This document shows, in pieces, positions 50,935 through 63,468 of a stretch of 64,000 nt of DNA; position 1 is the stretch's first letter; every line of letters begins with the position of its first letter. The translations under genes and the position numbers were made by a program. The DNA is taken from positions 112,431-176,430 of IMG/VR virus record IMGVR_UViG_3300042474_001151; one strand, written 5' to 3'. The stretch is from a virus (Duplodnaviria; Heunggongvirae; Uroviricota; Caudoviricetes). The notes beneath the pieces were generated by a model that made no database searches, was not told the DNA's origin, and worked only from the letters and a program-made list of their open reading frames with translations.

Positions 50935-51195
50935 ATGAGAAGAAAGAAACCATTCATGGATGATATCCATAAGACCACACCTGTAACCATCACCTATAAG
51001 TTCTATAATGACACGGTGATTATGAAGAGAGACGTATATGATTTAACAATTAGGGACCTAATGGAGTTAAATCGGTCCATGGTGGTGAATGTCTTTGATG
51101 AACAACTCTATCAGGAGTATATTATTCAATTAGCAGGGGAGTTAACAAAGAAAAAGAATCCAATTAAGAACTTTATTGAAAGAATATTAAGATAA
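50935..51195 (+). CDS. Hypothetical protein
   Basis: ORF only. Confidence 0.45.
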   Translation: MRRKKPFMDDIHKTTPVTITYKFYNDTVIMKRDVYDLTIRDLMELNRSMVVNVFDEQLYQEYIIQLAGELTKKKNPIKNFIERILR

Positions 51196-51435
51196 GTTTG
51201 GAATTGTAATAAAGATATCTTATCTTTGTAAAAGAAATTAGTTCATTGACATTATTGGAAATATTATTTCATCTTCTTAATAGAAGATGGTGCCAGTTGT
51301 TTGGCACATAGTGAATTCTGAATAAACAGAATGTGGATTTATCCGTGGAGATTAATTTCTCACTCACTCAATACCTTTTATTTTTTAAAAATATTGTTCA
51401 CAACTCATTGTAACATAGAAGGTTGTATATGGATA

Positions 51436-51724
51436 GGTTGTGAATACCATTACTTTGAAAGGTTTATACAACAGAGTGACTGTCTAAATGACTACGACCC
51501 GGTTGTGAATACCCCTACTTTAAAAGGTATATACAACCGGTATAGCTCTCATGTCATTAATGATTTGGTTGTGAATACCATTACTTTGAAAGGTTTATAC
51601 AACAAACGATTGAAAGGTATATACAACCACCACATAAATGAAGATATATACAACATCCCATTCCATACTTTACATATTAAGGTATAAACAACGAATTGGT
51701 TATTAAAAGGTAATATACAACACG
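51436..51724 (+). repeat. Array of three 38-bp imperfect-palindromic direct repeats (GGTTGTGAATACCATTACTTTGAAAGGTTTATACAACA) with 27/28-bp spacers, then four decaying partial copies
   Basis: Copy 1 (51436-73) and copy 3 (51567-604) are identical. Copy 2 (51501-38) has five mismatches. The truncated copies keep AAAGGT[AT]TATACAAC at 51611, 51643, 51677 and 51705. The track ORF 51331..51687 is an artefact of reading through the repeats. Confidence 0.85.
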
Positions 51725-51775
51725 AAGTCTCACGACTTAAAGATTATTATTTCCAATAATATAAACAAAATAACC

Positions 51776-53143
51776 ATGTCCATTAAAACAAGGAAGATTA
51801 AATTGATTGCGGTTGGTGAAACTGCAAAGGATAGAACAAAGGTCTACAACTACATTAAGAAGGTTGCAGATGATTTGACCCAAGTGGGAAATGAGGTTAT
51901 AAGACTTCATGTGTGCAATCAATATGAAATTGACAGGTTAAAGGGTACAAATAATATTTCCAAGGGTGATGCAATTAAGATACTACAAGATTCACTTGGT
52001 ACATCCATAAGGAATTCGGGGTATCAACTACTAACAAAATTCCCATATATATCTTCTCAAGTAAGGACATGTTTCAATTCTGTTATATATAAGACCATAA
52101 GTGATAACTTCTATGATATCCTTAAAGGGAAAGTATCCATTCCATCATTTAGAAAATCTAATCTATCCATTCCATTTTCAGCCAATAATGATAAAGAAAC
52201 TGGTATAACGAACGCAATATACGCCGAGGGAGATAGATACTACATACAATTCCCATTATCGGGGGAAGAAAGAAAGATACATAAAAAAGTTGAATTATCC
52301 TTATTCTTCGGAAAAGATAGAAGTAATAATAGAATTATTGTAGATAGAATACTCAATAGTGAATATAAACTATGTGATAGTAACTTCAAAATAGAAGATA
52401 ATGATTTATATCTATTGATTACCTATAAACAACCAGATAGTATTAAACCCGAAATGGATGTTAATAAGGTAATGGGTATAGACTTAGGTATTAATAGACC
52501 CGTATCCATTTATATTTCCAATGAAAAACATCAACCACGACAGATTAATATAGGATTAAAGATACAACATGAAAGGATGAAATTCTATAAACATAGAAAA
52601 TCCCTACAGGAATCTTTAAAGTATTCTAAAGGTGGTCACGGTAGAAATAGAAAGTTGAAGTCTTTGGAAGATTTAAGAGATAAGGAAAAGAATTGGAGTC
52701 AATTAATAAATCATACTATCTCTCGAGAAGTTATCAGGATTGCTAACGAGTATAATGTTGGTGTTATCCATATGGAAGATTTAACAGGAATAACAACTAA
52801 CTCTAAGGATTACTTCATGAAGAGTTGGGCATACTACCAACTACAAACTTATATAGTATATAAAGCAAAAGAACTTGGGATAACCATATTATGGGTAGAC
52901 CCTAAGAATACTTCTAATACCTGTCCCACTTGTAAGGTTTCTGAACCATTGAATAGAAACGATAAAGATAAAACAAAATTCAGATGTATTAATTTGAATT
53001 GTAAGGACTTTGATATGGATAGAGATGCTGATATTGTAGGAGCATTTAATATAACACATACCTTAGGATTAGATGTAAAGTCTAATAGTAAAGAAGGTAG
53101 AATGAAAAAAGGTAAGGAGAAAAAATTTATGGAACAAGTATAA
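51776..53143 (+). CDS. tnpB: TnpB-like RNA-guided RuvC nuclease (IS200/IS605 OrfB/Cas12-like). No tnpA is nearby.
   Basis: RuvC-I MGIDLGINRP, RuvC-II VIHMEDLTGI, RuvC-III DMDRDADIVGAFNI, and zinc finger CPTC...FRCINLNC. Confidence 0.85.
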   Translation: MSIKTRKIKLIAVGETAKDRTKVYNYIKKVADDLTQVGNEVIRLHVCNQYEIDRLKGTNNISKGDAIKILQDSLGTSIRNSGYQLLTKFPYISSQVRTCFNSVIYKTISDNFYDILKGKVSIPSFRKSNLSIPFSANNDKETGITNAIYAEGDRYYIQFPLSGEERKIHKKVELSLFFGKDRSNNRIIVDRILNSEYKLCDSNFKIEDNDLYLLITYKQPDSIKPEMDVNKVMGIDLGINRPVSIYISNEKHQPRQINIGLKIQHERMKFYKHRKSLQESLKYSKGGHGRNRKLKSLEDLRDKEKNWSQLINHTISREVIRIANEYNVGVIHMEDLTGITTNSKDYFMKSWAYYQLQTYIVYKAKELGITILWVDPKNTSNTCPTCKVSEPLNRNDKDKTKFRCINLNCKDFDMDRDADIVGAFNITHTLGLDVKSNSKEGRMKKGKEKKFMEQV

Positions 53144-54018
53144 TATGTTCACTAATCTCTACCGTTCACGGAACGTGAACATAGGTATTTTGTGAACACT
53201 TTTACCCTGAAGGGAGGAGACGAGAGTCTCCGACCGTACAATTACCCCCTATAAAATTACCCCTCAGAACCCCTCCATAGGGGTTTTATTTTACCCCGAA
53301 TTTTTTCCTGTTTATACCACTAAAAACCCCACTTTTTCCTGTCTGTTTTATCGTGATCAATTAATATATCTAAAACTATCTTTTTCTATCCCATATTTGG
53401 GTTCTAGTATAATTTATCCACAATTCCCCACTTTCTCCCACTTACTAGGAATATACCCTGGGATTGACCCGTGAGCGAATCACAGACCATTTTATTTTTT
53501 CTACCAGAATATACCCCTAATATCATTATATTATTACGGTCGGACTCTTCGAGTCCTCCCTTCAGGATGTCATACAAGTGTCTTAGTATAACCCTTTATA
53601 TATTATATTAATCTGTCATACATTAGGTTCCACGTGGAACCCTGAAGGGGGACCGAAGGTCCCCCGTATAATGAAACATTCGTAATACGGGATGAAGGGG
53701 ACCGAAGGTCCCCGAGTATACTTATAATACTTTTATACGGTCCTGATGTGATACGTCTATAATCCCTGAACCGTAATACAAACATTACTGGGGTGAAGTA
53801 GAAAATGGTTTGCCAAACAACATTAACATTACTGGGGAGACCAATATTGTTTGGCAGATTATACGGGGACCTTCGGTCCCCTTCAGGAGAATCTTAGAAT
53901 AATCCTATGGAAATTAAAAAAACCCTTAGGGATTTTCCGAAGGGTTCTTAGTATAGTACAATATATGTCTTACAAGGAAAGGATGAAGGGGGACCGAAGG
54001 TCCCCCGTAAGTAATACT
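53144..54018. repeat. GC-rich structured non-coding region with nested palindromic repeats. A TnpB-associated ncRNA/right end or a MITE-like insertion is possible.
   Basis: Four hairpin units (GGGGGACC-GAAG-GGTCCCCC) at 53647-65, 53697-713, 53865-81 (inverted) and 53988-54006. Perfect palindrome GGTTCCACGTGGAACC at 53639. Imperfect 34-bp inverted repeats at 53205..53238 and 53535..53566. A 26-nt partial copy of the upstream array repeat at 53185-53210. AACATTACTGGGG motifs at 53784 and 53824. Confidence 0.8.
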
Positions 54019-54903
54019 CTATGTCCATTTAAAAATAAAGTTGAACTTATCTAAGTTACTTGAAAAACGAACAGGAACTAAATCATTTGATTTAAGTATG
54101 TATTTTATTCTTTCTGTTAATAGTGTTTCTAATAGTTCTTTTTTAGGTACTGCATAATCTTCAGAAAGTTTTGGGTACTCTATATAGATTGGCATAAAAT
54201 CGAAGTCTACTTCCCCAGTAATCTTGTTGTGGCTTCTTGCATCACATTTGAAATTAAGTTTAACATTTTTGGGGAATTTATAATATACCTTGATTTGTTT
54301 TAATTCACCATCATCTCCCATACTCGTATTGATTTCATCTGGTATTGTAAAGGTTCCCTCCTCGACGAAGTCAAGATGAACCTGAAGGTTATGTGGAGTA
54401 TTCTTTTGGGATTGGAGTTGTCTCAGACCTCTATTAATTCTTTCCAAGGTGGTGTCGTCGAGTTCCATTACAGATCTAAATCCCACGGGGTCCTTAAGAA
54501 ACGTCATCAGAGTCTTTACTTTACGAACTTCTTTTGTCCATTGAAGTATCTCCACGGGTAATACAGTGTCCATTGCACTGTTTAAGTTAAATCCAATGAA
54601 TTCATTCATTCCCCCAGTAAATAATAGGTCACTGATCCTCACCGTGGTTTCACCCATCTCATTACTATTCCCATCCATGTACTCGTCATACATGGGCTTG
54701 AACTTCTCCGCGATTTCGGTCATCAACTTGAATATTATATCTGGTTGGACCTGAGTCTCACGTATTACGATGTTCAAGTAAGCACCAAATGTACTGAAAG
54801 TTTCAGGTAATGTATAATAAATCTCACCGTTTATTGTGTTCAACGGACCCCTCAGAGACTTTACGAATCTCTCGAAATCTGATTTGTCTAATATTTTTCC
54901 CAT
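54019..54903 (-). CDS. Hypothetical protein
   Basis: 294-aa ORF. A hairpin plus T-run on the minus strand at about 53915-53950 lies downstream. Confidence 0.5.
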   Translation of the reverse strand: MGKILDKSDFERFVKSLRGPLNTINGEIYYTLPETFSTFGAYLNIVIRETQVQPDIIFKLMTEIAEKFKPMYDEYMDGNSNEMGETTVRISDLLFTGGMNEFIGFNLNSAMDTVLPVEILQWTKEVRKVKTLMTFLKDPVGFRSVMELDDTTLERINRGLRQLQSQKNTPHNLQVHLDFVEEGTFTIPDEINTSMGDDGELKQIKVYYKFPKNVKLNFKCDARSHNKITGEVDFDFMPIYIEYPKLSEDYAVPKKELLETLLTERIKYILKSNDLVPVRFSSNLDKFNFIFKWT

Positions 54904-54915
54904 AGATATAAATAT

Positions 54916-54944
54916 AAAAAAAAAGGTTCCATGGTGGTGGAACC
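54916..54944 (-). terminator. Intrinsic terminator (minus strand)
   Basis: GGTTCCA-CCACCA-TGGAACC hairpin followed by T9 on the minus strand. Confidence 0.55.
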
Positions 54945-54969
54945 TCTTAGTAATACATGTGTAATAAGA

Positions 54970-55149
54970 CTATCGTCCCATTAACTCGTTACGGAACTGT
55001 ACGGCCTTTCTCTTACTAGAGAAATTCTTAGAGTACTTAGTACCATTAACACTTACACGTACACGGTAAGATGAACCATCATGATAGATGTTGTCGGCGA
55101 CAGGAACATACGTAGTTACTGTGGTGCGACGGGATGTTGTTTTTTTCAT
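54970..55149 (-). CDS. Possible 59-aa AP2-like DNA-binding domain protein
   Basis: SSYRVRVSVNGTKYSKNFSSKRKAVQFRNE resembles the AP2/integrase-arm DNA-binding fold. Below the track size cutoff. Confidence 0.35.
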   Translation of the reverse strand: MKKTTSRRTTVTTYVPVADNIYHDGSSYRVRVSVNGTKYSKNFSSKRKAVQFRNELMGR

Positions 55150-55419
55150 TTGCGACTATTTTAAGTTTATATATAAAATATAACAAATAATATCCAAATA
55201 AAAAAATCCTGTCAAAAAAATATTTTATCCCAGTAATGTTCCGAGTCCCTGATCAGGTCCCACTGTTGAGATATCTATCTCCCCACTTCTTGGTCATATA
55301 GGCATCATACCTATGTACCTTGTTCGGGTTGAACAGGAATATCACGAAGTAGTAATCCCACTTCCACTCTAAATCTTTTAAAAACTTCTTCATATGATGT
55401 TGTTTATTCCCCAGTAATG

Positions 55420-55686
55420 TTATCCCATCTTCTCCTTCCTGAGGATGTCGGTCAGAAGATTTTTGTGATTTTGGAGGATTACACCGTGCTGTTTCTTAAG
55501 AGCTTCGTCCAAAGACATTCTTTTGTGTGTAATCCTCCAATTGATTCTGTCGGTCGACTCCCATCGTTCCCAATGTTTACCACTAGGTGATAATTGAATT
55601 CTACTGTGAATCTTTTTCATTTGCTTTTTATTTGATAATTCCGCAAAGGTACGGTGTTTAAGGGTTAATAACAAACCCTTAAACAA
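55420..55686 (-). CDS. Hypothetical basic protein
   Basis: ORF only. Its stop overlaps a CCCCAGTAATGTT motif. Confidence 0.4.
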   Translation of the reverse strand: MFKGLLLTLKHRTFAELSNKKQMKKIHSRIQLSPSGKHWERWESTDRINWRITHKRMSLDEALKKQHGVILQNHKNLLTDILRKEKMG

Positions 55687-56245
55687 ATTCTTCAGTTTTA
55701 ATCATATTGAAGTCAATTGACTTCAGTTTGAATATTAAGTAATCGATAGCTATTCCCACTATCTTTCCATTGTGCTTAGCCACAAGAAGTCGGTAGGAAC
55801 CATCTCCATAACCTGAAGACGATACTACCCCAGTATTATATGAACCCCACTGTTGGCTTGACAAGGTTAATCTGCACATCTTCTCATACCACTTATCTCC
55901 CTCACCCTCACACGGTAACATAAAGTCCATCTTAGGTGCTGTTATCTCATCAGCAATGGAATCATTCCTATAGGACTCCATATCAAATATCCCACACTGA
56001 CCTGAGTCAACACCGATATCTGCTGCGGTAACTGTTCTCCAAGACAAATCGTCCTCCACATAATCCTTGTGGACAGCAACAAGTGCTGCACATCTTGTAC
56101 CCCAACCACCGGTCTCATCCGATTTGAATGCTGTGGAGGAATACTCACCAGGTAATACATCTGTCAACTTATGCTGACACCAGGTAGGGACAGTGTAACA
56201 AGGGTCCGATACCATAACTTCCGAGCCTAAATAAATTTTTTCCAT
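55679..56245 (-). CDS. Hypothetical protein
   Basis: 188-aa ORF, GC-richer than its surroundings. Confidence 0.5.
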   Translation of the reverse strand: MEKIYLGSEVMVSDPCYTVPTWCQHKLTDVLPGEYSSTAFKSDETGGWGTRCAALVAVHKDYVEDDLSWRTVTAADIGVDSGQCGIFDMESYRNDSIADEITAPKMDFMLPCEGEGDKWYEKMCRLTLSSQQWGSYNTGVVSSSGYGDGSYRLLVAKHNGKIVGIAIDYLIFKLKSIDFNMIKTEEFV

Positions 56246-56246
56246 T

Positions 56247-56570
56247 TTAAATTACATTTATTGTGAATGATTCTGTTTCGATTTGTCTGTGTAAATAAAC
56301 TAAGTGTTCCATTGTAAGGTCGTTATAACCTAAGTCGTGGTAACCATCTCCTGTAATACCTTTGGTGATTAACTCACCTGTGGTTCCACATATTCCAATA
56401 ACAACTACTTTAACTTGGTAGTCGTCGTCGAAGTTTTGGGTAAACCACACTGAGAATGGGCTGGTTAATTCTAATTCAAAATCATCCCCTCCGTTAAGTT
56501 TAACGGTTCTGTGGACGATATCTCGGTGAATACTATCACGGAGTTTTAATAATTCTTGACCATAGTTCAT
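56247..56570 (-). CDS. Hypothetical protein
   Basis: ORF preceded by a class-A-like promoter. Confidence 0.45.
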   Translation of the reverse strand: MNYGQELLKLRDSIHRDIVHRTVKLNGGDDFELELTSPFSVWFTQNFDDDYQVKVVVIGICGTTGELITKGITGDGYHDLGYNDLTMEHLVYLHRQIETESFTINVI

Positions 56571-56594
56571 ATGATTAATAGTTTTAGTGTAATA

Positions 56595-56626
56595 CGAAAT
56601 TAGATATTATTTTCGAATATTCCAAA
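56595..56626 (-). promoter_or_regulatory. Probable class A promoter (minus strand)
   Basis: Minus strand reads TTTGGAATATTCG, 20 nt, then TAATTTCG (imperfect -7 box), upstream of the ATG at 56570. Confidence 0.4.
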
Positions 56627-57109
56627 TTATCCTAGAATATTTTTTAGAACTTTAACATTCTCGTTAATCTCAAGGTCCATCACTTTAAGTAACTTCTCCT
56701 TAGCTAACTCCATAAACTCTACACTGTTACCCAGTAAATCAATGTCCGTCCCGTGCACATCCGTCTTCCCGACGATGACCCTGATGTCCTTAGTGCCTTT
56801 ACCCTCTCTATAGAATAGAGCTCGAGCGTAGATGTACTCACGAACCAAAGACAGTTTGATTTCATCAGCAACCGATTCCTTAGAACGGAGTTGCATAATG
56901 ATTTCTTCTAACTTGGCTAACATCTCGAAGTTGGTCTTCATCATACGGATGCTGTTCTTATACTGATTACAGTACTTCACCAGCTCATCAGTGTGAGGAA
57001 TACTTAAATCGATGTCCACATTAAGGAACCGATCGTACGAACTAATTCTATCTCGGGTACCCACTATCTCGGTGAATACTCCTCCCGTTAAACGATTTTC
57101 TCTACCCAT
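56627..57109 (-). CDS. Hypothetical protein
   Basis: ORF only. Confidence 0.45.
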   Translation of the reverse strand: MGRENRLTGGVFTEIVGTRDRISSYDRFLNVDIDLSIPHTDELVKYCNQYKNSIRMMKTNFEMLAKLEEIIMQLRSKESVADEIKLSLVREYIYARALFYREGKGTKDIRVIVGKTDVHGTDIDLLGNSVEFMELAKEKLLKVMDLEINENVKVLKNILG

Positions 57110-57333
57110 TTTATTTTTGTTTTTAATTTGTTTAAAATCCCAGTAAACTTGTCCCCATCCTGGCTCACCTCAGGTGCGAACTCATATCTCGTGTTCATTG
57201 TACTTCCCAAATAACCAGTAAAGTATTTGGTTGGTTCAACATATTGGCTTGATACTCTATATCTTTCCACCCACTCATTAAATGATAATGGGGTTTGGAA
57301 TGTGCTCATCTTACATTTCAGTTTCTTTTCCAT
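57088..57333 (-). CDS. Hypothetical protein
   Basis: ORF only. Confidence 0.4.
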   Translation of the reverse strand: MEKKLKCKMSTFQTPLSFNEWVERYRVSSQYVEPTKYFTGYLGSTMNTRYEFAPEVSQDGDKFTGILNKLKTKIKWVEKIV

Positions 57334-57970
57334 ATATCTCTTTTACTTCGTTAAAAATTTCTTCTAATGTTTTAAGGTCTTCCTCCCCAGTAATAAAATG
57401 GAACATTTCCTTCACCGACTCGAAGGTTACATCTTCATCACTCTCGAACAAATAGTCAATGTCGCCGTCGATAGATTCAAAGAAGTTCTCCTTGTCGAAA
57501 AGATATCTACCCTCATTGTATGAATAATCTTCTTCGGTTAATCCATTCTCATTGTCAAAATAAGATTTACCACAGAAGTCACAACCTGGTTCTTCATAAT
57601 ATAACTCACACTTCACATTGAATAACCTACCCAAGTGTTGAATGAAGTTTATTGGTGGTGACCAAGCTGAATCGAACGACATTGTTATTGATTCGTCATC
57701 ATAAGTGATATTAGCTTCGTTGTATGACACATCCCACTTACAACCCCAGTAATTAATGTTGGCATCGTACCATCCTCCGTGTTCGTATTCATTTAACTCA
57801 ATAGATTTGTCACGACCAACAAGAGCCATAAAAATGCCAGGGGATGTGTTATCCTTACTCTCGATATCTTCGAGATAAAATTTAATTCTGTCCAAGTTTT
57901 CGTTATCACCTGTAATAGTAAGGTGATTGTTGCACCAATTTGGCATAGTTGTATGATTTATGTTTAACAA
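57311..57970 (-). CDS. Acidic hypothetical protein
   Basis: ORF only. Confidence 0.5.
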   Translation of the reverse strand: MLNINHTTMPNWCNNHLTITGDNENLDRIKFYLEDIESKDNTSPGIFMALVGRDKSIELNEYEHGGWYDANINYWGCKWDVSYNEANITYDDESITMSFDSAWSPPINFIQHLGRLFNVKCELYYEEPGCDFCGKSYFDNENGLTEEDYSYNEGRYLFDKENFFESIDGDIDYLFESDEDVTFESVKEMFHFITGEEDLKTLEEIFNEVKEIYGKETEM

Positions 57971-58020
57971 AGATATAACAGGGATATCATTATTCCAAAT
58001 AATATCCCCGTTATTTTATT

Positions 58021-58503
58021 TTACCAAGAAGCTCTGTATTCAAAGTCACCAGAGTACAATCCGTGTTCTTTGGATTGTTCGTGTTCTTCTAATAACTCCT
58101 CAATGATTTTGATAGTTGAGTTTACATCTTCTTTGTAATACTCATCAATTTCATCACCACCGAAAAAGAAACCCTGTACTGGTGGAAGAAGTTCTTTAGC
58201 CTTATCAAAGTTGGAACTAACTTCTTTTAGTGTTTCAAATAACTCTTTCAGCTTGTCCTCATCAACATTGATGTTTTGACATTCATCAATACCACCACCA
58301 CAATTCTCAACGAACCATCCGTGAAGTGCATTGAACTTTCTCCAATACGCCACCTGTTCGGTGATGTAACAAATACGATTTGGTTTAATGTCGTTACGAA
58401 CTACACCATTCTTTTTAACTTCGATTTGGTGTTGTTGTTCAGGTGGGTTGTGTTCCCAATTTTGTACATAAGTTCTTTTGTACAGATACATGTCTAGTCC
58501 CAT
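58021..58503 (-). CDS. Hypothetical protein
   Basis: ORF only. Confidence 0.5.
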   Translation of the reverse strand: MGLDMYLYKRTYVQNWEHNPPEQQHQIEVKKNGVVRNDIKPNRICYITEQVAYWRKFNALHGWFVENCGGGIDECQNINVDEDKLKELFETLKEVSSNFDKAKELLPPVQGFFFGGDEIDEYYKEDVNSTIKIIEELLEEHEQSKEHGLYSGDFEYRASW

Positions 58504-58566
58504 GATTTTTTAGTTTAAGTGTTAATTAATAATGTAAAGGTATTACAATAATTTTATTATACCAAA

Positions 58567-58890
58567 TTATTTTATGAAAAGTTTACTATCGATTGTAAAT
58601 AATTCTTTGTACTCACTTCCGTCAGCATTCTGTCCGTTTAAATTCCAGAATGGCAATACTCTTGGATTGTATTTTAAATGTGCGGTAGTTTCAGGAACAA
58701 AATCTTCTGTAAGGATTTCTATTTCTTTACAAAGAACATATGCACAAACGACTTTGGTGGTTTCCCCAGTAAATATTTTCTGCGCTGCTGTCCTGTTGTT
58801 TTTCAGAACGCAATCAGTTAGTATTAACTGAACTTCAGCTGGGTGATAATATTTCACCCAGCCGTTGTTATATTCAATTTTCCATTTCAT
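58567..58890 (-). CDS. Hypothetical protein (start trimmed to MKWKIEYNNGW)
   Basis: The track ORF 58567..59130 overlaps the upstream gene by 205 nt. The internal Met removes that overlap. Confidence 0.4.
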   Translation of the reverse strand: MKWKIEYNNGWVKYYHPAEVQLILTDCVLKNNRTAAQKIFTGETTKVVCAYVLCKEIEILTEDFVPETTAHLKYNPRVLPFWNLNGQNADGSEYKELFTIDSKLFIK

Positions 58891-58924
58891 ATAGTTCTCT
58901 CCCTTTCCGAGATTAAACCTAACT

Positions 58925-59377
58925 TTATGCTTTTTCAACTTCTTCCTTTTTATATTTTTTAACAAATTGGGATGGAGTACCACGAAACAATTCAGTTTTA
59001 TTTCCGTCGTTCTCATAACAAACAAACTCAATGGAGTAATCTTCTTTAACGATAACATCATAAAGATAATCTTCCCAAGAATTTCCACGACTTGACAAAG
59101 ATTGTACATAGGTGTTTCCTGTTTCGCCACCTTTTAATTTCCAAATGAGTTGAGCGGCTAAACAACCAGCTCCGTTGAATACTAATTTCTTTTCGTTGGC
59201 ACCATACCCATTAACGACTTTTCCTGTTGATAACCATTCAGCGGTTTCAAGTGGATGACCTGTTGGGTATCCATCATACTGACGATAGATTAAACAGATT
59301 TCATTCTGTTTTACTTTTTTTACTTTTTTACCTGTTGAGTATTCCTCAATGATGCGGTAAGTTGAACGAGTTCCCAT
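58925..59377 (-). CDS. Hypothetical protein (start trimmed to MGTRSTYRII)
   Basis: The conserved class B promoter lies at 59411..59441. The longer track ORF would begin inside the promoter/repeat region. Confidence 0.45.
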   Translation of the reverse strand: MGTRSTYRIIEEYSTGKKVKKVKQNEICLIYRQYDGYPTGHPLETAEWLSTGKVVNGYGANEKKLVFNGAGCLAAQLIWKLKGGETGNTYVQSLSSRGNSWEDYLYDVIVKEDYSIEFVCYENDGNKTELFRGTPSQFVKKYKKEEVEKA

Positions 59378-59410
59378 AATAGATTTTTTTTTGTGATTAA
59401 TATTATAGTA

Positions 59411-59441
59411 CAAAGATAATACTTTTTTATTACCTGCCAAA
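59411..59441 (-). promoter_or_regulatory. Bacteroidetes-type promoter, class B (AAAATAAATTTGG-N19-TATCTTTG)
   Basis: Minus strand reads AAAATAAATTTGGCAGG..., 19 nt, then TATCTTTG, 33 nt upstream of the ATG at 59377. Confidence 0.6.
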
Positions 59442-59482
59442 TTTATTTTCAACTTTTTTAAAAAAATATTTGCCGGCGTCAT

Positions 59483-59612
59483 GCATAATCCTAAACATTA
59501 CTGGGGTGTAATACGGATCTGATCGGCGCACGATCTGCAAAACTGGCTAAACATTACTGGGATTTACCCCAGTAAACTTTCGCCTCAGGCCTGTGCAGGT
59601 ACAGTGCACAGC
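59483..59612. repeat. GC-rich intergenic repeat element R1 (AACATTACTGGGGTGTAATAC; hairpin TTACTGGG-ATTTAC-CCCAGTAA; CAGTGCACAG)
   Basis: Motif at 59494-59516. Perfect 8-bp-stem hairpin at 59554-59575. GATCGGCGCACGATC palindrome. Homologous to R2-R5. Confidence 0.8.
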
Positions 59613-59639
59613 AAAAAAAATCCCCACCTTTCGGTGAGG
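59613..59639 (-). terminator. Intrinsic terminator (minus strand) for 59648..60448
   Basis: Minus strand reads CCTCACC-GAAA-GGTGGGG followed by T8. Confidence 0.75.
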
Positions 59640-59647
59640 ACATTAAA

Positions 59648-60448
59648 TTAAAGTTGTATGACAAACTTATTCTTTGTTAACTTATTTCGAACTCGTTTAT
59701 ATTTTAGTCCGACAATTACATTCTTTTTATCTTTATACCTCATATCGTATAAATCCCCATCGATTACTTTCCTATCCCAAAATGTTTTAGGTACTTTATT
59801 AAAAACAACCGCCACCCTTACATTCTTATTTAACATTGAGTGACACTCATTTAAATTGTGACCGCTATAAGAGAAAGTTAAATCGTAGTTCTTATATTTT
59901 TTAAGTAGTTCGATTCTTTTAGGAACCTTTGTATAATCGTAGAATTGGATGTGTTGAAAGTATTGTAAAATATTAACGGGTTTATCATTTACATGAATAT
60001 AAAATGATTCGGGCGTTATATCTGATGTGTTATTCAAACGAACCGAAAATTTATAACCTAACTTCTTAGCTTTTAATTCTGTGGACTTAATTTCATCAAA
60101 CATCCAATTAACAAAAAATTCCCTGTGTTCAAAAAACAATTTAGTTTTTGCAATTCGTGAACGATTAATTTTATCGTCCTCCATGTTCATCGTGTTCATC
60201 CCTGATTCATTCAAACATAACTTTGTACATTCTTTTGTTCTCATAGGGCAAACCTCGTAACCGCTCATTTTTGCAGGAGCTAAGTACAAACTATATGTTA
60301 ATTCATCGTACTTGAATGCCTTCTGATGTTTCGTCGTCATATTAACGGAACCTAAATAAGATATCCCTGTTAATCTTTTTGCTTGAGCCTTAGTAGTGTA
60401 AATCATTTGTTTATTTTTTAGTGTAGTGAGTAATTGTTGTTTCTTCAT
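59648..60448 (-). CDS. Hypothetical protein with Cys cluster (CPMRTKECTKLC)
   Basis: 266-aa ORF. Confidence 0.5.
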   Translation of the reverse strand: MKKQQLLTTLKNKQMIYTTKAQAKRLTGISYLGSVNMTTKHQKAFKYDELTYSLYLAPAKMSGYEVCPMRTKECTKLCLNESGMNTMNMEDDKINRSRIAKTKLFFEHREFFVNWMFDEIKSTELKAKKLGYKFSVRLNNTSDITPESFYIHVNDKPVNILQYFQHIQFYDYTKVPKRIELLKKYKNYDLTFSYSGHNLNECHSMLNKNVRVAVVFNKVPKTFWDRKVIDGDLYDMRYKDKKNVIVGLKYKRVRNKLTKNKFVIQL

Positions 60449-60596
60449 CCACCGACTCTGTCACCAAATCAAAATTGTTTTTTTTACACAATTTTTCCAA
60501 TGCAGGTAGGCACGCATCGTAGGTTTCTTCATCGTCGAAGATTGCTACCAGTTCAGCATATTTGCCATTATCCAATTCGAAATAAACTTTTACCAT
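60411..60596 (-). CDS. Small acidic hypothetical protein
   Basis: ORF overlapping the start of the downstream gene. Class B promoter upstream. Confidence 0.4.
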   Translation of the reverse strand: MVKVYFELDNGKYAELVAIFDDEETYDACLPALEKLCKKNNFDLVTESVDEETTITHYTKK

Positions 60597-60618
60597 AGTG
60601 TTGTTTTTTTAGTGTACA

Positions 60619-60650
60619 CAAATATACAACTAATACTTTTATAATCCAAA
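60619..60650 (-). promoter_or_regulatory. Bacteroidetes-type promoter, class B
   Basis: Minus strand reads AAAATAAATTTGGATTATAAAAG..., 20 nt, then TATATTTG, 23 nt upstream of the ATG at 60596. Confidence 0.6.
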
Positions 60651-60820
60651 TTTATTTTTAAATATTTTTTTGAGTTAGCGCATGCGCGCAGCACTGGTCT
60701 AACTTTACTGGGGTAATACAACAGCAGATTACGCTGCAGATCATAGCTCCAATAATTACTGGGATTCCCCAGTAAACTTCAGCGCTGGTCCGGGCTGTGT
60801 TTGCGCTGAAAGTAATACGC
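60651..60820. repeat. GC-rich intergenic repeat element R2
   Basis: GCGCATGCGCGC palindrome. AACTTTACTGGGGTAATACAAC at 60701-22. Hairpin TTACTGGG-ATTC-CCCAGTAA at 60756-75. TTCAGCGCTG. The track ORF 60658..60852 is an artefact of this element. Confidence 0.8.
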
Positions 60821-60850
60821 AAAAAAAAGGGTGAACATTTCTGTCCACCC
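60821..60850 (-). terminator. Intrinsic terminator (minus strand) for 60872..61186
   Basis: Minus strand reads GGGUGGACA-GAAA-UGUUCACCC (with one G-U pair) followed by U8. Confidence 0.7.
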
Positions 60851-60871
60851 AATCGTTCACACTAATAAACA

Positions 60872-61186
60872 CTAATCACTAATTCGTTTTTCTGTTCTAA
60901 TACACTCAGCTTCCCACTGCTCACATAGAAGTAATACATCTTCCAACACATTCTCATTCAACTCCCAATAACTTTCTTCGTAGGTGTCGATAGCGTCAGA
61001 ACTACTTGAACGAGGTTCGTACACATTTACTTCGATATAATCTTCTGTGAAATATTCACCAAGCCCAACATAGTTACCTAATGTTCCGATAAGAATACTA
61101 TTCTCACCTTCTAATTCTCCAATACTAAAACATCCGTTGACTTTTAGTATGTCTGTAATACGATTAATGATTTCTGAATTTTCCAT
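60872..61186 (-). CDS. Acidic hypothetical protein
   Basis: ORF only. Confidence 0.45.
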   Translation of the reverse strand: MENSEIINRITDILKVNGCFSIGELEGENSILIGTLGNYVGLGEYFTEDYIEVNVYEPRSSSSDAIDTYEESYWELNENVLEDVLLLCEQWEAECIRTEKRISD

Positions 61187-61188
61187 TT

Positions 61189-61500
61189 TTAAATTGATTT
61201 AGTATTATCCCAAATTATATTACCTTCCTCGTCATACAACTCCTCCGTAGGTTCTCCACCATTTTCTTCGGGTATTAAACCTTCAAGAGTTTCGTCAATA
61301 TGTTCCCACGGCAATTCCGTGTTATCTCCTCTTTCACGGAACTCGATTGCCAATTTCTTAGCCTCCTCCAATGAGTTAGCCTCTATTTCAAATTCTGTAC
61401 GATACCAAGTCGTAACCTTTGTGTCTAAATGAAAATTAAATGTTGTTAGGGTCTGTTCCATTTTCCATTGATTTTTTAATTGATATAATAAGTAATACAA
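61189..61500 (-). CDS. Acidic hypothetical protein
   Basis: ORF only. Confidence 0.45.
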   Translation of the reverse strand: MYYLLYQLKNQWKMEQTLTTFNFHLDTKVTTWYRTEFEIEANSLEEAKKLAIEFRERGDNTELPWEHIDETLEGLIPEENGGEPTEELYDEEGNIIWDNTKSI

Positions 61501-61572
61501 CCATTACCGAAAACAATACAATAACTCCGAATCCTAAAAGTAGGCAATATAAGACATTCATAGTTTTAATTT

Positions 61573-61770
61573 TTAAAGTTCACGAATATACATATAATCT
61601 TCTAATTCTTCCAAAGGAATTCTTCCGTTGTTTGAGGAATAATATCCTTGTCTTCGATATCGTTCTTTCCACTTGTCAAATGCCTCAAATGCTTTTTCCT
61701 TTGAGGTGTAGTAAGGTCTATCGAATTCAATCGTAAACCCGTCGGGTGATAATACTTCGTACCTTGTCAT
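61573..61770 (-). CDS. Small hypothetical protein
   Basis: ORF only. Confidence 0.4.
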   Translation of the reverse strand: MTRYEVLSPDGFTIEFDRPYYTSKEKAFEAFDKWKERYRRQGYYSSNNGRIPLEELEDYMYIREL

Positions 61771-61771
61771 A

Positions 61772-61969
61772 TTAATCTTGTTTAATTAAAGTTTGAGAAT
61801 ACTCTTGTGTAATAAGTGTGTCCATGTGTTGTGAACCACTATAACGATTTACTTCTCGTTGGGTTACAACTTGATGAGAACCGACGGGAATAAACCCTTC
61901 GTTAATGTACTTGTTTACTTTTTCGGTTAATCCTTCGGGGGATGAACTTGTTAATACTTTGTACTCCAT
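61772..61969 (-). CDS. DUF1737-like small protein (start trimmed to MEYKVLTS)
   Basis: MEYKVLTSSSPEGLTEKVNKYINEGFIPVG resembles the DUF1737 signature. The promoter at 61992..62023 fits this start. Confidence 0.45.
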   Translation of the reverse strand: MEYKVLTSSSPEGLTEKVNKYINEGFIPVGSHQVVTQREVNRYSGSQHMDTLITQEYSQTLIKQD

Positions 61970-61991
61970 ATCTTTTTGTTTTAGTGTAAGA

Positions 61992-62023
61992 CAAAGATAA
62001 AACAATAATATTATTTTACCAAA
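61992..62023 (-). promoter_or_regulatory. Bacteroidetes-type promoter, class B
   Basis: Minus strand reads AAAATAAATTTGGTAAAATAAT..., 20 nt, then TATCTTTG, 23 nt upstream of the ATG at 61969. Confidence 0.6.
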
Positions 62024-62294
62024 TTTATTTTGAAGAATTTTCTCCAGCCCGATCATCCCTAAACATTACTGGGTTGAATTGTTAGCCAGCGCAAATTTCC
62101 TGATCAGCGCGCGCAAATCTGGCTAATGTTTACTGGGGTAATACAAATAACTCATGGACCAGGCATTGTGCGCAGGTGAAAATTACTGGGATGTCCCCAG
62201 TAAAATTCAGCGCTGTTTCTATGCAGCTACAGTGCACAGGTAATACACCCAGTAAACTTGTGACCCATCGCACAGTGTGACGGGGTTCCCCAAA
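62024..62294. repeat. GC-rich intergenic repeat element R3 (the longest copy)
   Basis: AAACATTACTGGGTTG at 62061. TGTTTACTGGGGTAATACAAAT at 62127-48. Hairpin TTACTGGG-ATGT-CCCCAGTAA at 62183-203. TTCAGCGCTG, CTACAGTGCACAGG and GGGGTTCCCC. Confidence 0.8.
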
Positions 62295-62323
62295 CAAAAA
62301 ACCCCCGAACTAAAAGTCCGAGG
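62295..62323 (-). terminator. Intrinsic terminator (minus strand) for 62354..63214
   Basis: Minus strand reads CCCUCGGAC-UUUUA-GUUCGGGGG (two G-U pairs) followed by U6. Confidence 0.65.
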
Positions 62324-62353
62324 GTTTCACCAATATAATCTTTAACCTATGTC

Positions 62354-63214: not shown

Positions 63215-63251
63215 CTGTTTAATTTTTATGGTTTAATAAATGATTGTATGA

Positions 63252-63283
63252 CAAAGATAAATTAATCTGGGATATAATCCAAA
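63252..63283 (-). promoter_or_regulatory. Bacteroidetes-type promoter, class B
   Basis: Minus strand reads AAAATAAATTTGGATTATATCCC..., 20 nt, then TATCTTTG, 38 nt upstream of the ATG at 63214. Confidence 0.6.
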
Positions 63284-63419
63284 TTTATTTTTAAGAAATA
63301 TTAATTATTTTTTTCCTCCTAATCCACCTGTGATCAGAGCTCCCAATATTACTGGGTAATACTTGACGATACCCCAGTAATTTTACGGGACGATCAGGTC
63401 GAGAAAAATTCTTGGACAT
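63284..63419. repeat. GC-rich intergenic repeat element R4
   Basis: TGATCAGAGCTCCC. AATATTACTGGGTAATACTTGACG at 63345-68 pairs with CCCCAGTAAT at 63372-81. Confidence 0.75.
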
Positions 63420-63445
63420 AAAAAAACCCCCGACAGAATCGGAGG
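63420..63445 (-). terminator. Intrinsic terminator (minus strand) for 63469..63789
   Basis: Minus strand reads CCUCCGA-UUCUG-UCGGGGG followed by U7. Confidence 0.7.
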
Positions 63446-63468
63446 TCTTATTAAAGTAGGTGGTTTTA

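Follow-up and report, generated by a model that had tools for sequence, protein, structure and literature searches.

Positions 53144–54018 of the 64,000-nucleotide stretch of DNA analysed here (the window) contain a conserved, lineage-specific module that we read, with slightly less than even confidence, as a cis element acting at the level of DNA, probably a replication origin with ssi-like mini-hairpins. The case for this reading draws on conservation, synteny, hairpin covariation, enrichment of DnaA boxes and other motifs, restriction to phages and independence from a neighbouring Cas12f-like gene. The module is built as a mosaic: short GC-rich palindromes, some direct and some inverted, are joined by conserved linkers. 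Its four GGGGACC..GGTCCCC units and two inverted repeats that had been taken for TIRs are six copies of one hairpin unit, with the pattern YTGAA, a GGG-led stem, a G-N-A or GNRA loop closed by C-G, and CCC-GTA. The parts of the module are listed below, with strand where one applies.

53146–53200: GTTCAC block; four copies of TGTTCAC/CGTTCAC/GTGAACA, some inverted, with a 7-bp stem and GAA triloop at 53164–53180.
53206–53238, + strand: hairpin unit U1, CCTGAA-GGGAGGAGAC-GAGA-GTCTCCGACC-GTA; tandem G.A mismatch on the + strand, GNRA loop; the left 'TIR'.
53241–53330, + strand: C-rich boxes; (A/T)TTACCCC at 53241, 53256 and 53290, and AAACCCC at 53326.
53268–53292, + strand: intrinsic-terminator-like hairpin and T-run, inside the C-rich boxes.
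53346–53389: AT-rich segment TTTTATCGTGATCAATTAATATATCTAAAACTATCTTTTTCTAT, containing a GATC site; nearly invariant.
53414–53422, + strand: perfect DnaA box TTATCCACA, in the part 53414–53441.
53418, 53428 and 53438, + strand: CCAC repeats at 10-bp spacing, after the DnaA box.
53460–53500, + strand: conserved block GGGATTGACCCGTGAGCGAATCACAGACC and T-run, in the part 53447–53516, flanked by the direct repeat AGGAATATACCC / CAGAATATACCC.
53535–53566, − strand: hairpin unit U2; tandem G.A mismatch and GAA loop on the − strand; the right 'TIR'.
53569 and 53615, + strand: two GTCATAC motifs, in the part 53569–53621.
53641–53672, + strand: hairpin unit U3, CCTGAA-GGGGGACC-GAA-GGTCCCCC-GTATAAT.
53691–53721, + strand: hairpin unit U4, GATGAA-GGGGACC-GAA-GGTCCCC-GAGTATAC; invariant in close relatives.
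53773–53856: motif block with GTAATAC and two AACATTACTGGGG (53781 and 53825).
53811–53824 and 53843–53856: two inverted copies of GCCAAACAAYAT, which can form a 14-bp hairpin.
53858–53887, − strand: hairpin unit U5, an inverted copy.
53916–53946, − strand: terminator-like hairpin and T-run, AACCCTT..AAGGGTT followed by T7 on the − strand, recognised by eye and serving the − strand gene block.
53982–54017, + strand: hairpin unit U6, GATGAA-GGGGGACC-GAA-GGTCCCCC-GTAAGTAATAC; abuts the stop codon of the − strand gene for a 294-aa protein.

A first-pass annotation of the region had described a 30-nt unit in three direct copies and one inverted copy. This holds for a 17-nt core, GGGGACCGAAGGTCCCC, which occurs exactly four times (53648+, 53697+, 53865− and 53989+; chance expectation of 0 copies in 100 shuffles); the whole 30-nt pattern is exact in U3 only, as the stems of U4 and U5 are 7 bp long and U4 and U6 differ in the 3′ flank. 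The inverted repeats, which had been placed from 53205, exist at 53206–53238 and 53535–53566 (18-nt arms at 89% as computed; outer 13 and 10 nt complementary by eye), but they are two further hairpin units and not TIRs. The core between them is C-rich, as described, with a + strand GC skew of −0.415 at 53250–53549. Its supposed seven or so TTACCCC/GGGGTAAT repeats are four TACCCC and six ACCCC, all on the + strand and none inverted; the hairpin with a T-run inside it is present at 53268–53292, although a terminator scan reported the overlapping 53280–53297 instead. Neither of two reported perfect palindromes survives as described: GTTCACGGAACGTGAAC, given as 53163–53181, occupies 53164–53180 and is a 7-bp stem with a GAA loop, and GGTTCCACGTGGAACC, given as 53639–53654, lies at 53626–53641 and is not conserved (58% paired in relatives, 0 covariation). 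All 7 GC-rich perfect hairpins of the 64-kb window (stem of at least 6 bp, loop of 3–4 nt) fall within 53216–54006. The GC content of the region is 39.9%, compared with 32.5% for the window, but the region is not the GC-richest part: the module reaches at most 0.413, below 55800–56249 (0.443), 56700–56999 (0.437) and 62100–62399 (0.433).

Comparison with related loci (numbered with the prefix L) indicates that the local hairpins, rather than any long-range structure, are maintained. In the hairpin stems, 19 pairs and 66 cells are changed on both sides, which none of 500 shuffles equalled, and slid controls score 3–4 times lower. The hairpin structure is under selection: stems vary yet stay perfectly complementary. 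The stem of U1 is swapped for other complementary stems in L001, L092 and L011, with both sides changed in 5 of 10 pairs; that of U2 varies among the window, L001, L002 and L121 with complementarity kept; the U3 alleles GGGGACAC and GGGGGTTC found in relatives are fully compensated, the latter also being the U5 allele of L001 and L099; and U6 changes on both sides in 5 of 8 pairs, with a GAA, GTA or GGA loop. In L118, the loop of U5 is flipped to GAA and the flanks are still inverted. The same few stem alleles recur, reshuffled, at different positions and in different genomes: U1 of L011 is identical to that of L001 despite the distance between the two phages. By contrast, the long-range pairing of the two 'TIRs' yields 3 pairs, a score equalled or exceeded in 263 of 500 shuffles, with no covariation among relatives, and in L001 the two 'TIR' stems differ from each other while each local hairpin is kept.

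The module, of around 850–875 nt, was found in at least 25 uncultivated phage contigs from at least 3 divergent lineages; the GGGATTGACCCGTGAGCGAATCACAGACC block, used as a search anchor, retrieved 6 viral and 17 metagenomic relatives. It occupies the same syntenic position in all relatives, none of which has an empty site, and of the loci for which flanking genes were examined all but one place it at a convergent gene junction, the exception being L223, with same-strand genes on both sides. Over aligned parts, the backbone is 88–99% identical to that of relatives, compared with 77–97% for the neighbouring 294-aa gene, and approximately 600 nt of non-hairpin backbone is conserved as strongly as coding sequence. 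Between lineages, block order is strongly rearranged and no common long-range fold is left. The order U1 (+), core, U2 (−) is retained in the window type, L011, L008, L221 and L224; the orientation of units around the core differs in the L005 lineage. A 60-aa open reading frame on the − strand (53603–53785) was rejected as a gene after a 25-nt insertion was found to break the frame in L142; it stays open in several relatives because the underlying DNA is conserved.

Individual parts differ in their persistence. The columns of the AT-rich 44-mer (53346–53389) are invariant across 11 relatives, and counterparts (TTTT(A/G)TCGT...) occur in L005, L008, L011, L221 and L224; we regard this segment as a candidate unwinding element. 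The terminator stem at 53268–53292 is retained in 9 of 11 close relatives, and inspection by eye shows ACCCC(T)AAAA-like boxes in the L005, L008, L011, L015 and L221 modules. The − strand hairpin at 53916–53946, which a simple terminator scan did not call, is nearly invariant in relatives and has a counterpart in L005 and L008. GTCATAC is present in 6–8 copies on the + strand of the L005 and L008 modules, and GCCARACAAYAT as separate copies in L221, L217 and L224. The GTTCAC block (DNA fold of −6.2 kcal/mol, z of −3.2) is present in the window, L091 and L104 and absent from L001, L092 and L094, and appears to be a variable accessory piece.

Searches for the hairpin unit in 185,579 bacterial and archaeal genomes returned 64 pattern matches, none of which is a true hairpin or palindrome. 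In IMG/VR, 14 of 18 matches are true palindromes, confined to one stretch per contig even in contigs of 213–335 kb (locus lengths are unreliable as a distance to contig ends). By these searches, the units are phage-restricted and clustered, with one cluster per phage contig. Among the cultured phages of INPHARED, blastn and tblastn found relatives of neither the region nor the 294-aa neighbour; the only matches were distant TnpB ones. The phages that carry the module are uncultivated and AT-rich, belong to one clade and have promoters of the Bacteroidota type; many are jumbo phages.

The gene beside the module, previously labelled tnpB, is a Cas12f-like effector with its own scaffold RNA (at about 51240–51392, ahead of the repeat array; compensatory in 11 of 20 pairs) and CRISPR mini-array upstream of the gene. 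As these elements sit upstream, the module is not the guide RNA or a transposon end of the Cas12f-like gene. Upstream of U1, the slot is occupied in different phages by the Cas12f-like locus, by an HNH_3 gene or by unrelated genes of 354 or 462 aa; in L005 a YunG-like open reading frame intervenes between the TnpB-family gene and the module, and in L011 the Cas12f-like gene is 1.8 kb away. Across the loci compared, the association with tnpB is incidental. The GTTCAC block resembles the 5′ half of the CRISPR repeat (duplex of −26.6 kcal/mol, roughly the top 0.03% of background), and a tracrRNA anti-repeat was considered at 53171–53230, where this best duplex lies; the sequence is repeat-like and missing in the closest relative, L001, and we did not take it as a tracrRNA because the real scaffold RNA lies upstream. 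No protospacer matching the spacers was found in the window or in the loci compared.

These observations bear on the first-pass annotation's own interpretation, namely a MITE bounded by the inverted repeats at 53206 and 53566 or a mobile REP-like cluster derived from IS200/IS605 (tnpB) activity. The inverted repeats do bracket a 296-bp core, the palindromic units have conserved flanks similar to those of REPs or IS200/IS605 ends, and a TnpB-family gene adjoins. We nevertheless consider this origin very improbable, given that the long-range pairing does not covary, that each phage contig has a single cluster and bacterial genomes lack a true unit, that the block is present without a TnpB-family gene and that this gene is a CRISPR-associated effector with its scaffold RNA upstream. 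A MITE was rejected: the flanks of the 'TIRs' (..TTTTAC|CCTGAAGG and CCTTCAGG|ATGTCA) share no target-site duplication, the 64 kb hold no second copy of the 360-bp element and the relatives carry the block at one syntenic position. An IS200/IS605 end or TnpB omegaRNA was also rejected, the module being uncoupled from the gene and the scaffold encoded upstream. As to the RAYT (Y1 transposase) gene of REP/BIME elements, no Y1 transposase was detected with Pfam or PHROGs among the about 40 of ~70 open reading frames of the window that were scanned. What stands of the earlier description is the REP-like palindrome cluster: six units of 30–35 nt form a mosaic of GC-rich imperfect extragenic palindromes, as in REP/BIME clusters, although a strict REP family was rejected (one cluster per genome, 5′ TGAA instead of GTAG, and 0 of 64 bacterial and archaeal matches true hairpins). 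The two outcomes that had been named as fatal to any structured element did not materialize: the block is present in close relatives, with covarying hairpins, and scans for known RNAs were empty (0 matches to Rfam 15 at gathering thresholds over the whole window, chance-level matches only at E values of up to 10, and no tRNA or tmRNA).

Whether the selected structure is DNA or RNA is indicated by the loops. Among 31 distinct units, a set chosen beforehand on flank and loop features, 30 have G-N-A loops (GAA, GTA or GGA), all 31 have a C-G closing pair and a TGAA 5′ flank, and the 3′ flank is G(T)A. Pair counts across the 31 unit variants contain no G.T wobble in the stems of U3–U6; a few GU cells are present in U1, U2 and U6, at positions where unequal stem lengths cause misalignment. 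C-G-closed G-N-A loops are the 'mini-hairpin DNA' motif, and the loops point to DNA and not to RNA. This motif is reported in ssiA of RSF1010 (CCGAAGG), the phage G4 origin and the N4 vRNAP promoters, with GGA or GAA loops (PMC13037366); under the definition given there, a C-GNA-G (or GNNA) loop with conserved flanks, the units qualify. A cUUCGg tetraloop was rejected, as correctly counted stems leave triloops (GAA/TTC). Folding energies are less informative. RNA folds of the whole region beat shuffles on both strands (z of −9.3 on + and −7.5 on −), which score alike because of the inverted repeats, and so the folds do not discriminate. DNA folds of single units (−9.3 kcal/mol for U3) differ by only 0.4–0.9 kcal/mol between sense and antisense and are likewise uninformative on strand, given this small difference and a model that may not credit GNA loops.

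The folding scores and the covariation would also fit transcription of the module, under a phage-specific polymerase or sigma factor, into at least one structured noncoding RNA, with the hairpins as RNA helices and the − strand CCCCAGUAAUG loops pairing with UUACUGGGG sites in right-arm mRNAs. In favour of RNA, U1 has GNRA loops on the + strand (GAGA, GACA and GAAA), the mismatches of the 53811–53856 hairpin are A.C on the + strand and would be G.U on the − strand, and copies of TTACTGGG outside the 59–64 kb intergenic elements are all on the sense (−) strand (9 of 9, 7 within open reading frames). We assign this alternative a low probability. Most loops are G-N-A triloops and the U3–U6 stems of the unit variants show no G.U pair, which is unusual for RNA and typical of DNA mini-hairpins; no Rfam family matches; the units point both ways; other lineages carry the two arms of the long hairpin as motif copies apart from each other; block rearrangements leave no shared long-range fold; and the host-type promoter TTTG-N19-TAnnTTTG, which precedes several right-arm genes and the CRISPR locus, is missing inside the module.

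An origin is suggested by the sequence motifs of the core. The DnaA box TTATCCACA at 53414–53422, of consensus type as in iteron-type origins, is the only perfect copy in 64 kb and is invariant in 11 relatives. TTATNCACA lies inside the module in 10 of 11 lineages, and its density is 12-fold higher inside (13 in 9.2 kb, 1.42 per kb) than outside (18 in 151.8 kb, 0.12 per kb); its varying position and orientation suggest turnover under selection. GCCARACAAYAT, GTCATAC and GTAATAC are enriched 9-fold, 18-fold and 7-fold inside modules, although the modules compared are homologous and the counts are therefore not fully independent. Other features sit less easily with an origin. The spacing of the repeated motifs is irregular, the AT-rich segment is unexceptional in a genome of 67.5% AT, a lone DnaA box in each module might have a role in transcriptional control instead and the L005 lineage has a different unit orientation around the core. 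No initiator gene adjoins: the module is bordered by a 59-aa gene, without a significant Pfam match, and the 294-aa protein, whose predicted structure (pLDDT of 87) has no fold match and thus gives no functional clue; no replication, packaging or recombination genes were recognized among the neighbours with Pfam and PHROGs, and in the scanned part of the 64 kb no gene for a primase or a virion RNA polymerase was recognized. In addition, the module lies at the maximum, and not the minimum, of cumulative GC skew, at convergent gene blocks. By the usual rule a skew maximum marks the terminus and not the origin, although skew in phages largely follows gene orientation.

From these features we infer origin function, DnaA binding, melting and priming at hairpins, as follows. 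Host DnaA would bind the conserved box and a phage DNA-binding protein the repeated motifs (GCCARACAAYAT, GTCATAC and the C4 boxes), and together they would open the adjoining AT-rich core. After strand separation, the GC-rich units would fold as very stable C-GNA-G mini-hairpins, each with its conserved 5′ TGAA and 3′ GTA(W)(W)A flanks, and, as with RSF1010 ssiA/ssiB or the N4 hairpin promoters, each could signal single-strand initiation to a polymerase, a primase or a helicase loader. U1 (+) and U2 (−) lie on either side of the core, their 3′ flanks turned towards it, so that synthesis from there would run outward in both directions. The intrinsic terminators at 53268–53292 (+) and 53916–53946 (−) may shield the module from two convergent transcription units.

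The arm to the right of the module differs from the left in its motifs. GTAATAC has 0 copies in 1–53600, where about 12 are expected from base composition (a rough estimate), compared with 19 on the + strand and 2 on the − strand to the right; TACTGGG/CCCAGTA has 0 copies to the left and 28 to the right. The first-pass annotation had connected the two AACATTACTGGGG motifs at 53781 and 53825 with the intergenic elements at 59–64 kb, which combine terminator, repeat and promoter, and this link is real: all other close copies are at or beyond 54213, those elements included, and the motifs of 53773–53856 tie the module to the right-arm repeat system. The abrupt start of GTAATAC and TTACTGGG at the module, and their strand bias in the right arm, might instead mark another type of DNA site at an arm junction (pac, a genome end, or a fork-arrest or dimer-resolution site) relative to which polar motifs are read. 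The position at the skew maximum would suit such a site, and several large contigs (98–324 kb) end inside the module. These contigs break at differing nucleotides, more as expected of assembly breaks than of fixed termini, which were rejected. With no terminase or recombinase gene adjoining the module, no dif-like sequence visible by eye and DnaA boxes that would be unexpected there, we regard a site of this kind as improbable.

A further alternative is that the hairpins and the two terminators stop and stabilize convergent transcripts, while the block serves as a homology anchor that delimits a hypervariable accessory slot, much as do PeSL cassettes of T4-type phages or bacterial BIMEs. The convergent junction, the terminator-like sites on both strands, a hairpin unit directly after each stop codon and the variable slot upstream of U1 all suit this explanation, as do the shuffled stem alleles, the U1 shared by the distant L011 and L001 and the breaks of long contigs within the module; PeSL stem-loops are also GGGG...CCCC and function as terminators and recombination sites (PMC2839356). 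However, a GC-rich hairpin with a T-run occurs only at 53268–53292 (+) and, by eye, at 53916–53946 (−); none of the six units has the T-run that genuine terminators in this genome possess. Terminators do not need approximately 600 nt of conserved non-hairpin backbone, this explanation does not account for the DnaA box or the enriched motifs, any transcript able to reach the units would run in a direction at odds with their strand-specific features (G.A mismatches and GNA loops), U6 being antisense to the − strand transcript, and PeSLs contain a promoter whereas the module has none. We hold a boundary insulator and recombination anchor to be rather unlikely.

The module is a concrete candidate origin, conserved and easy to recognize, that combines DnaA boxes with hairpin signals; to our knowledge, nothing is known about how replication starts in these abundant freshwater phages, some with genomes above 300 kb. 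With one cluster per genome, it could also be used as a sequence tag for candidate origins. The hairpin family may be a natural case of mini-hairpin DNA under clear selection, in which structure is kept and stems are swapped. It is possible, though on balance doubtful, that the units constitute a previously undescribed class of single-stranded DNA initiation signal (C-GNA-G loop, exchangeable stem, TGAA/GTA flanks) that marks a DnaA-box origin in a wide clade of Bacteroidota-type, often jumbo, phages, and that the module also organizes the GTAATAC/TTACTGGG polarity on one arm and anchors a hot spot for accessory genes (Cas12f-like CRISPR locus, HNH). If it were only a terminator and recombination boundary, it would be an ordinary feature of unusual appearance. 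The finding also shows that a core phage element can look like a transposon scar beside tnpB, and the annotation of the locus changes, as the neighbour is a CRISPR effector and not a transposon gene.

Several known systems resemble the module in part. As with a TnpB omegaRNA or IS200/IS605 right end, a structured noncoding stretch that begins with an imperfect hairpin lies directly 3′ of a TnpB-family gene; unlike these, the module persists when the gene is absent, replaced or separated, and the scaffold RNA of the effector is upstream of the CRISPR array. REPs are dispersed in tens to hundreds of copies, begin with 5′ GTAG and depend on a RAYT; we know of no RAYT in these phages. The module shares with REP/BIME elements imperfect palindromes of 25–35 nt in alternating orientation, conserved linkers and an extragenic position between convergent genes, and differs in its single cluster per genome, its 5′ TGAA and the absence of the unit from bacterial genomes. 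PeSLs (PMC2839356 and PMC4122927) are similarly conserved GGGG...CCCC stem-loops beside hyperplastic slots for accessory open reading frames, with shuffled copies. They are promoter and stem-loop composites dispersed through hyperplastic regions, whereas the units described here are promoter-less and form a single cluster in a long conserved backbone with DnaA boxes, so that stem-loop and variable slot are present and the host-type promoter is missing; the 59–64 kb intergenic elements (terminator, repeat and early promoter) are the closer analogue.

We know of no vRNAP gene for these phages. The N4 vRNAP promoters resemble the units as GC-rich DNA hairpins with a 3-nt purine-rich loop (GAA/GGA) closed by C-G, and are recognized as a folded single strand with conserved neighbouring sequence (PMC13037366 and PMC4496689). 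Their stems are 5–7 bp, compared with 6–10 bp in the module, and they all face the same way, at the genome end ahead of the early genes, whereas the module has units in both orientations in a gene-free convergent region. A broader likeness is to the origins of plasmids and phage-plasmids: RSF1010 oriV, with ssiA/ssiB, and P1 oriR are iteron/DnaA-box origins with single-strand initiation signals. Unlike those origins, the module has no RepC, RepA or RepB′ type gene recognized near it, has at least 6 hairpins instead of two, has stems that are hypervariable between close relatives, and is located at a convergent junction and GC-skew maximum. Like them, it joins short repeated motifs, a consensus DnaA box and an AT-rich core, with hairpins on opposite strands beside the core and conserved flanks, and the CCGAAGG mini-hairpin contained in ssiA (PMC13037366) occurs literally in U3–U6 (ACCGAAGGT).

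A noncoding stretch at 53144–54018, here termed the module, is bounded by the stop of a + strand gene of 455 amino acids (aa) (51776–53143) and by the stop of a − strand 294-aa gene (54019–54903). Its GC content is 39.9% compared with 32.5% for the window, and the GC profile of the window contains richer stretches, contrary to the first-pass annotation. A 17-nt core, GGGGACCGAAGGTCCCC, is present in four copies, three direct and one inverted, when none is expected by chance; for this core, the copy number and orientations given earlier are borne out. These four copies with their flanks, together with inverted repeats at 53206–53238 and 53535–53566, make up six copies of one hairpin unit (U1–U6, with orientations + − + + − + in window order). 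The unit opens with (C/G)(C/A)TGAA; next come the GGG-led arm of a 6–10-bp stem, a short loop and the complementary arm with CCC at its end, and G(T)A(W)(W)A closes the unit. The imperfect inverted repeats described earlier exist, as two further unit copies (U1 and U2) rather than as the ends of one element. All perfect GC-rich hairpins of the 64-kb window (stem ≥6 bp, loop 3–4) lie within 53216–54006. Some details required correction: the reported palindromes are at 53164–53180 and 53626–53641, the former being a 7-bp stem with a GAA loop and not a perfect palindrome, and the approximately seven C-rich repeats are four copies of TACCCC and six of ACCCC, on one strand only.

Parts of the module, from left to right
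53146–53200: GTTCAC block, optional, leftmost part
Right of the GTTCAC block: U1
53268–53292: terminator-like hairpin and T-run, with C4 boxes around them
53346–53389: invariant AT-rich 44-mer with a GATC site
53414–53422: perfect DnaA box TTATCCACA, followed by CCAC repeats at 10-bp spacing
53460–53500: conserved block ending in a T-run, with a 12-nt direct repeat on its flanks
Right of the 53460–53500 block: U2
Between U2 and U3: two copies of GTCATAC
Right of the GTCATAC pair: U3 and U4
Between U4 and U5: GTAATAC, two copies of AACATTACTGGGG and a GCCAAACAAYAT pair
Left of the 53916–53946 site: U5
53916–53946, − strand: terminator-like site
Rightmost part: U6

The module was identified in at least 25 contigs of uncultivated phages, several of them 100–335 kb in length, via the effector protein encoded by the 455-aa gene, a conserved 24-nt block string, a looser metagenome pattern and the hairpin pattern (loci on relative contigs are designated by L numbers). 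In close relatives the order is fixed: 86-aa gene, variable slot, module, 294-aa gene (−) and 59-aa gene (−). The module stands at the junction of converging + and − blocks in all examined lineages except L223, which has − strand genes on both sides. Outside the hairpins, the aligned parts of the backbone are 88–99% identical to those of close relatives, compared with 77–97% for the 294-aa gene, and long runs are invariant in 11 sequences. The slot, between the 86-aa gene and U1 (51195–53205), is hypervariable in its accessory genes; L091, L092, L094, L099, L104 and L121 have a slot at the same place.

Contents of the variable slot
Window and L001: Cas12f-like locus
L091 and L104: 462-aa gene
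L092: 354-aa gene
L094: small genes, including an HNH_3 endonuclease
L099: HNH-like gene, recognized by eye

In L005 a YunG-like open reading frame (ORF) separates the effector gene from the module, as do two other genes in L011. On these comparisons, conservation of the module does not depend on the Cas12f-like gene. The 59-aa gene (54970–55149, −; ..SSYRVRVSVNGTKYSKNFSSKRKA..) is a conserved neighbour of the module in every lineage, and its immediate neighbour in L005 and L008; to the eye, its product resembles small AP2/Int-type DNA-binding domains, and Pfam returned only a weak dsrm match (E = 0.037). Many contigs (L095, L096/L220, L116, L128, L140, L142 and L143), three of them 98, 101 and 324 kb long, have an end within the module, and the end point differs from contig to contig, which fits assembly breaks caused by hairpins, repeats and strain-level variation.

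A search of 185,579 bacterial and archaeal genomes with the pattern TGAAGGGG-N3–5-GAA-N3–5-CCCCGTA gave 64 matches, of which not one is a true hairpin. In IMG/VR the same pattern occurred in 18 stretches, one per contig; the 14 with true units are all in phage contigs of 33–37% GC, clustered within about 1 kb. From these results, the unit is confined to this clade of phages and does not behave as a mobile repeat in dispersed copies. The transposon reading of the first-pass annotation was wrong, and we regard a MITE or mobile REP as highly improbable.

The 455-aa gene, previously called tnpB, encodes an effector with a TnpB/Cas12f TNB domain, in which RuvC-type acidic residues are conserved, and among solved structures it is closest to Cas12f effectors (E = 1e-44). 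These matches, with a scaffold RNA and an array upstream of the gene, do not describe a plain tnpB; the gene is part of a compact type V CRISPR locus carried by the phage (51193–53143).

Features upstream of the effector gene
51193/51221: Bacteroidota-type early promoter, TTTG-N19-TAnnTTTG
~51240–51392: conserved, structured tracr/omega-like scaffold RNA, ending near the anti-repeat TTGTTCACAAC
51436–51603: three 37-nt repeats and their 28–29-nt spacers, forming a CRISPR-like mini-array; four 3′-half repeats follow it

When ten copies of the scaffold RNA were compared, drawn from six phage loci of which the window is one, compensatory changes affected 11 of the 20 predicted pairs. In relatives, an array can reach a dozen regular repeats (L012), or arrays can flank the gene on both sides (L013). 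We rejected the module as the guide RNA of the effector: scaffold RNA and array are upstream of the gene, so the downstream module is not needed for this purpose.

At 51604–51721 and in the arrays of L001, L005 and L008, the full repeats are followed by at least four 3′-half repeats (AAGGTATATACAAC) that alternate with short ‘spacers’ of roughly 7–25 nt. Distant phages have some of these short spacers in common (for example, CAAGTTTATG(T/G)ACGATATT in L005 and L008), and L005 contains an inverted copy of the window’s last spacer; instead of being acquired, these sequences may be fixed guides. Some relatives (L012, 4835–4965; L015, 4832–4960) have one more copy of the scaffold RNA, located 3′ of the effector gene and fused directly to a half repeat and spacer, a natural single-guide-like arrangement, and L013 has scaffold and array on either side of the gene. 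The GTTCAC block of the module is similar to the anti-repeat and to the CRISPR repeat in its 5′ half (TTGTGAACAC..TTTTAC..CCTGAAGG versus TTGTGAATACCATTACTTTGAAAGG); it also occurs in relatives that have no Cas12f-like gene (L091 and L104), and the related GGTTCACAAG adjoins a DnaA box in L214, L217 and L221.

In an alignment of 11 relatives, the local hairpins have two-sided changes in 19 pairs (66 cells), a count matched by none of 500 shuffles and 3–4 times that of slid controls. Covariation in the long-range stems (U1 with U2, and U4 with U5) was not above chance in this alignment. Selection thus acts on each hairpin as a local structure and not on pairing between the supposed terminal repeats. 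Stems vary between phages with nearly identical flanks while perfect complementarity is kept, and a small set of stem ‘alleles’ (GGGGGACC, GGGGACAC, GGGGGTTC, GGGGTTCC and GGGACCAC) recurs at various positions and in various genomes. U3 is often identical to U6 within a single genome, U1 is identical in L001 and the distant L011, and in L118 one loop is flipped within unflipped flanks of the same unit. This recurrence points to exchange or conversion between unit copies, in addition to selection for the fold.

Several features bear on whether the hairpins act as DNA or RNA. Among 31 distinct units, a set pre-selected by flank and loop score, 30 have G-N-A triloops (GAA, GTA or GGA) on the unit-sense strand and all 31 have a C-G loop closure and a GGG stem start. 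U1-type units have a GNRA loop and tandem G·A mismatch, on one strand only. C-GNA-G and C-GNNA-G are ‘mini-hairpin DNA’ motifs according to a review, which places them in the phage G4 origin, in RSF1010 ssiA (CCGAAGG), to which the RepB′ primase binds, and in the N4 virion RNA polymerase hairpin promoters, where the loops are GGA or GAA (PMC13037366). No G·T wobble was seen in the pair counts of the U3–U6 stems; a small number of GU cells occur in U1, U2 and U6, at places where stems of unequal length misalign. Host-type promoters precede several right-arm genes (the right arm being 53601–64000) and the CRISPR locus, but the module itself contains none. An Rfam search gave no match, and fold quality is equal on both strands. 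An apparent 14-bp hairpin at 53811–53856 is two inverted copies of GCCAAACAAYAT, which stands as separate copies in other lineages and for this reason is more likely to be a protein-binding site than an RNA stem. Collectively, these observations favour a role at the DNA level, and one or more structured RNAs seem improbable.

The first-pass annotation had linked the module to repeats at 59–64 kb, a link that proved real and stronger than first stated. No k-mers set 53601–64000 apart from 1–53600 more sharply than TACTGGG/CCCAGTA and GTAATAC. GTAATAC is absent from both strands of 1–53600 (about 12 copies estimated from base composition), has 21 copies across the right 10.4 kb (19 on + and 2 on −), and is 7-fold enriched inside modules of other lineages. 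All 27 copies of TTACTGGG in the window lie at or beyond 53785 (53785–63960). Outside the 59–64 kb intergenic elements, 9 of 9 copies are on the sense (−) strand and 7 are inside − strand ORFs, mostly in one frame, (I/F/V)-T-G; within these elements they form inverted pairs (for example, TTACTGGGATTTACCCCAGTAA) that come after a terminator and before the early promoter that follows it. This right-arm motif system takes in the right third of the module, and its motifs may be operator sites, polar DNA signals or RNA-pairing sequences. The intergenic elements (59483–59647, 60660–60855, 62040–62340, 63290–63440 and 63860–63980) share one layout along the − strand: intrinsic terminator, GC-rich repeat with ATTACTGGG and GTAATAC, and early promoter TAAATTTGG-N19-TAnnTTTG.

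We interpret the module as a DNA-level cis element, most likely, if tentatively, a replication origin. TTATCCACA at 53414–53422 is the sole perfect DnaA box in 64 kb and is invariant in 11 relatives. In a count over 11 module lineages, 9.2 kb of module contained 13 copies of TTATNCACA and 151.8 kb of flanks contained 18, a 12-fold difference in density, although the modules compared are homologous and the counts not independent. At least one DnaA box is inside the module in 10 of 11 lineages, at variable positions and orientations, and GCCARACAAYAT, GTAATAC and GTCATAC are enriched 7–18-fold inside modules. The window type, L011, L008, L221 and L224 all have the core between U1(+) and U2(−), in this order; L005 does not. 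The origin would comprise the DnaA box, repeated binding motifs and AT-rich core; stable mini-hairpins would flank the core on opposite strands, their conserved 3′ flanks facing it, and terminators on either side would shield it. If the hairpins are ssi-like, so that initiation takes place on the folded strand, 3′ to the hairpin, we infer that U1 would fire leftward and U2 rightward, outward from the core. However, the convergent junction is at the cumulative GC-skew maximum, and no initiator, primase or helicase gene is recognizable nearby. A different DNA site (pac, genome end or fork arrest) is a doubtful alternative. With terminators on both sides and a variable slot adjoining, the module could also be a terminator or insulator and recombination anchor for that slot, similar to PeSL or BIME elements (PMC2839356), which we consider possible but rather unlikely.

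The opposite boundary, at which − and + gene blocks diverge, is at 13320–14125, the cumulative GC-skew minimum; these approximately 800 AT-rich nucleotides contain only short ORFs and a small tandem repeat (13758–13795), and are another candidate control or origin region. We know of no study of replication in these phages. The module is well defined, widely conserved and clearly selected, and the origin reading brings a testable mechanism.

Neither Rfam nor annotated phages nor the literature searched yielded a description of the unit or module. CCGAAGG of RSF1010 ssiA is found literally in the module, and the terminator, repeat and promoter layout of the right-arm intergenic elements resembles the PeSL cassettes of T4-type phages. 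The module, with its function putative, would be akin to known kinds of element: origin-like regions with single-stranded-DNA hairpin signals, or palindromic boundary elements.
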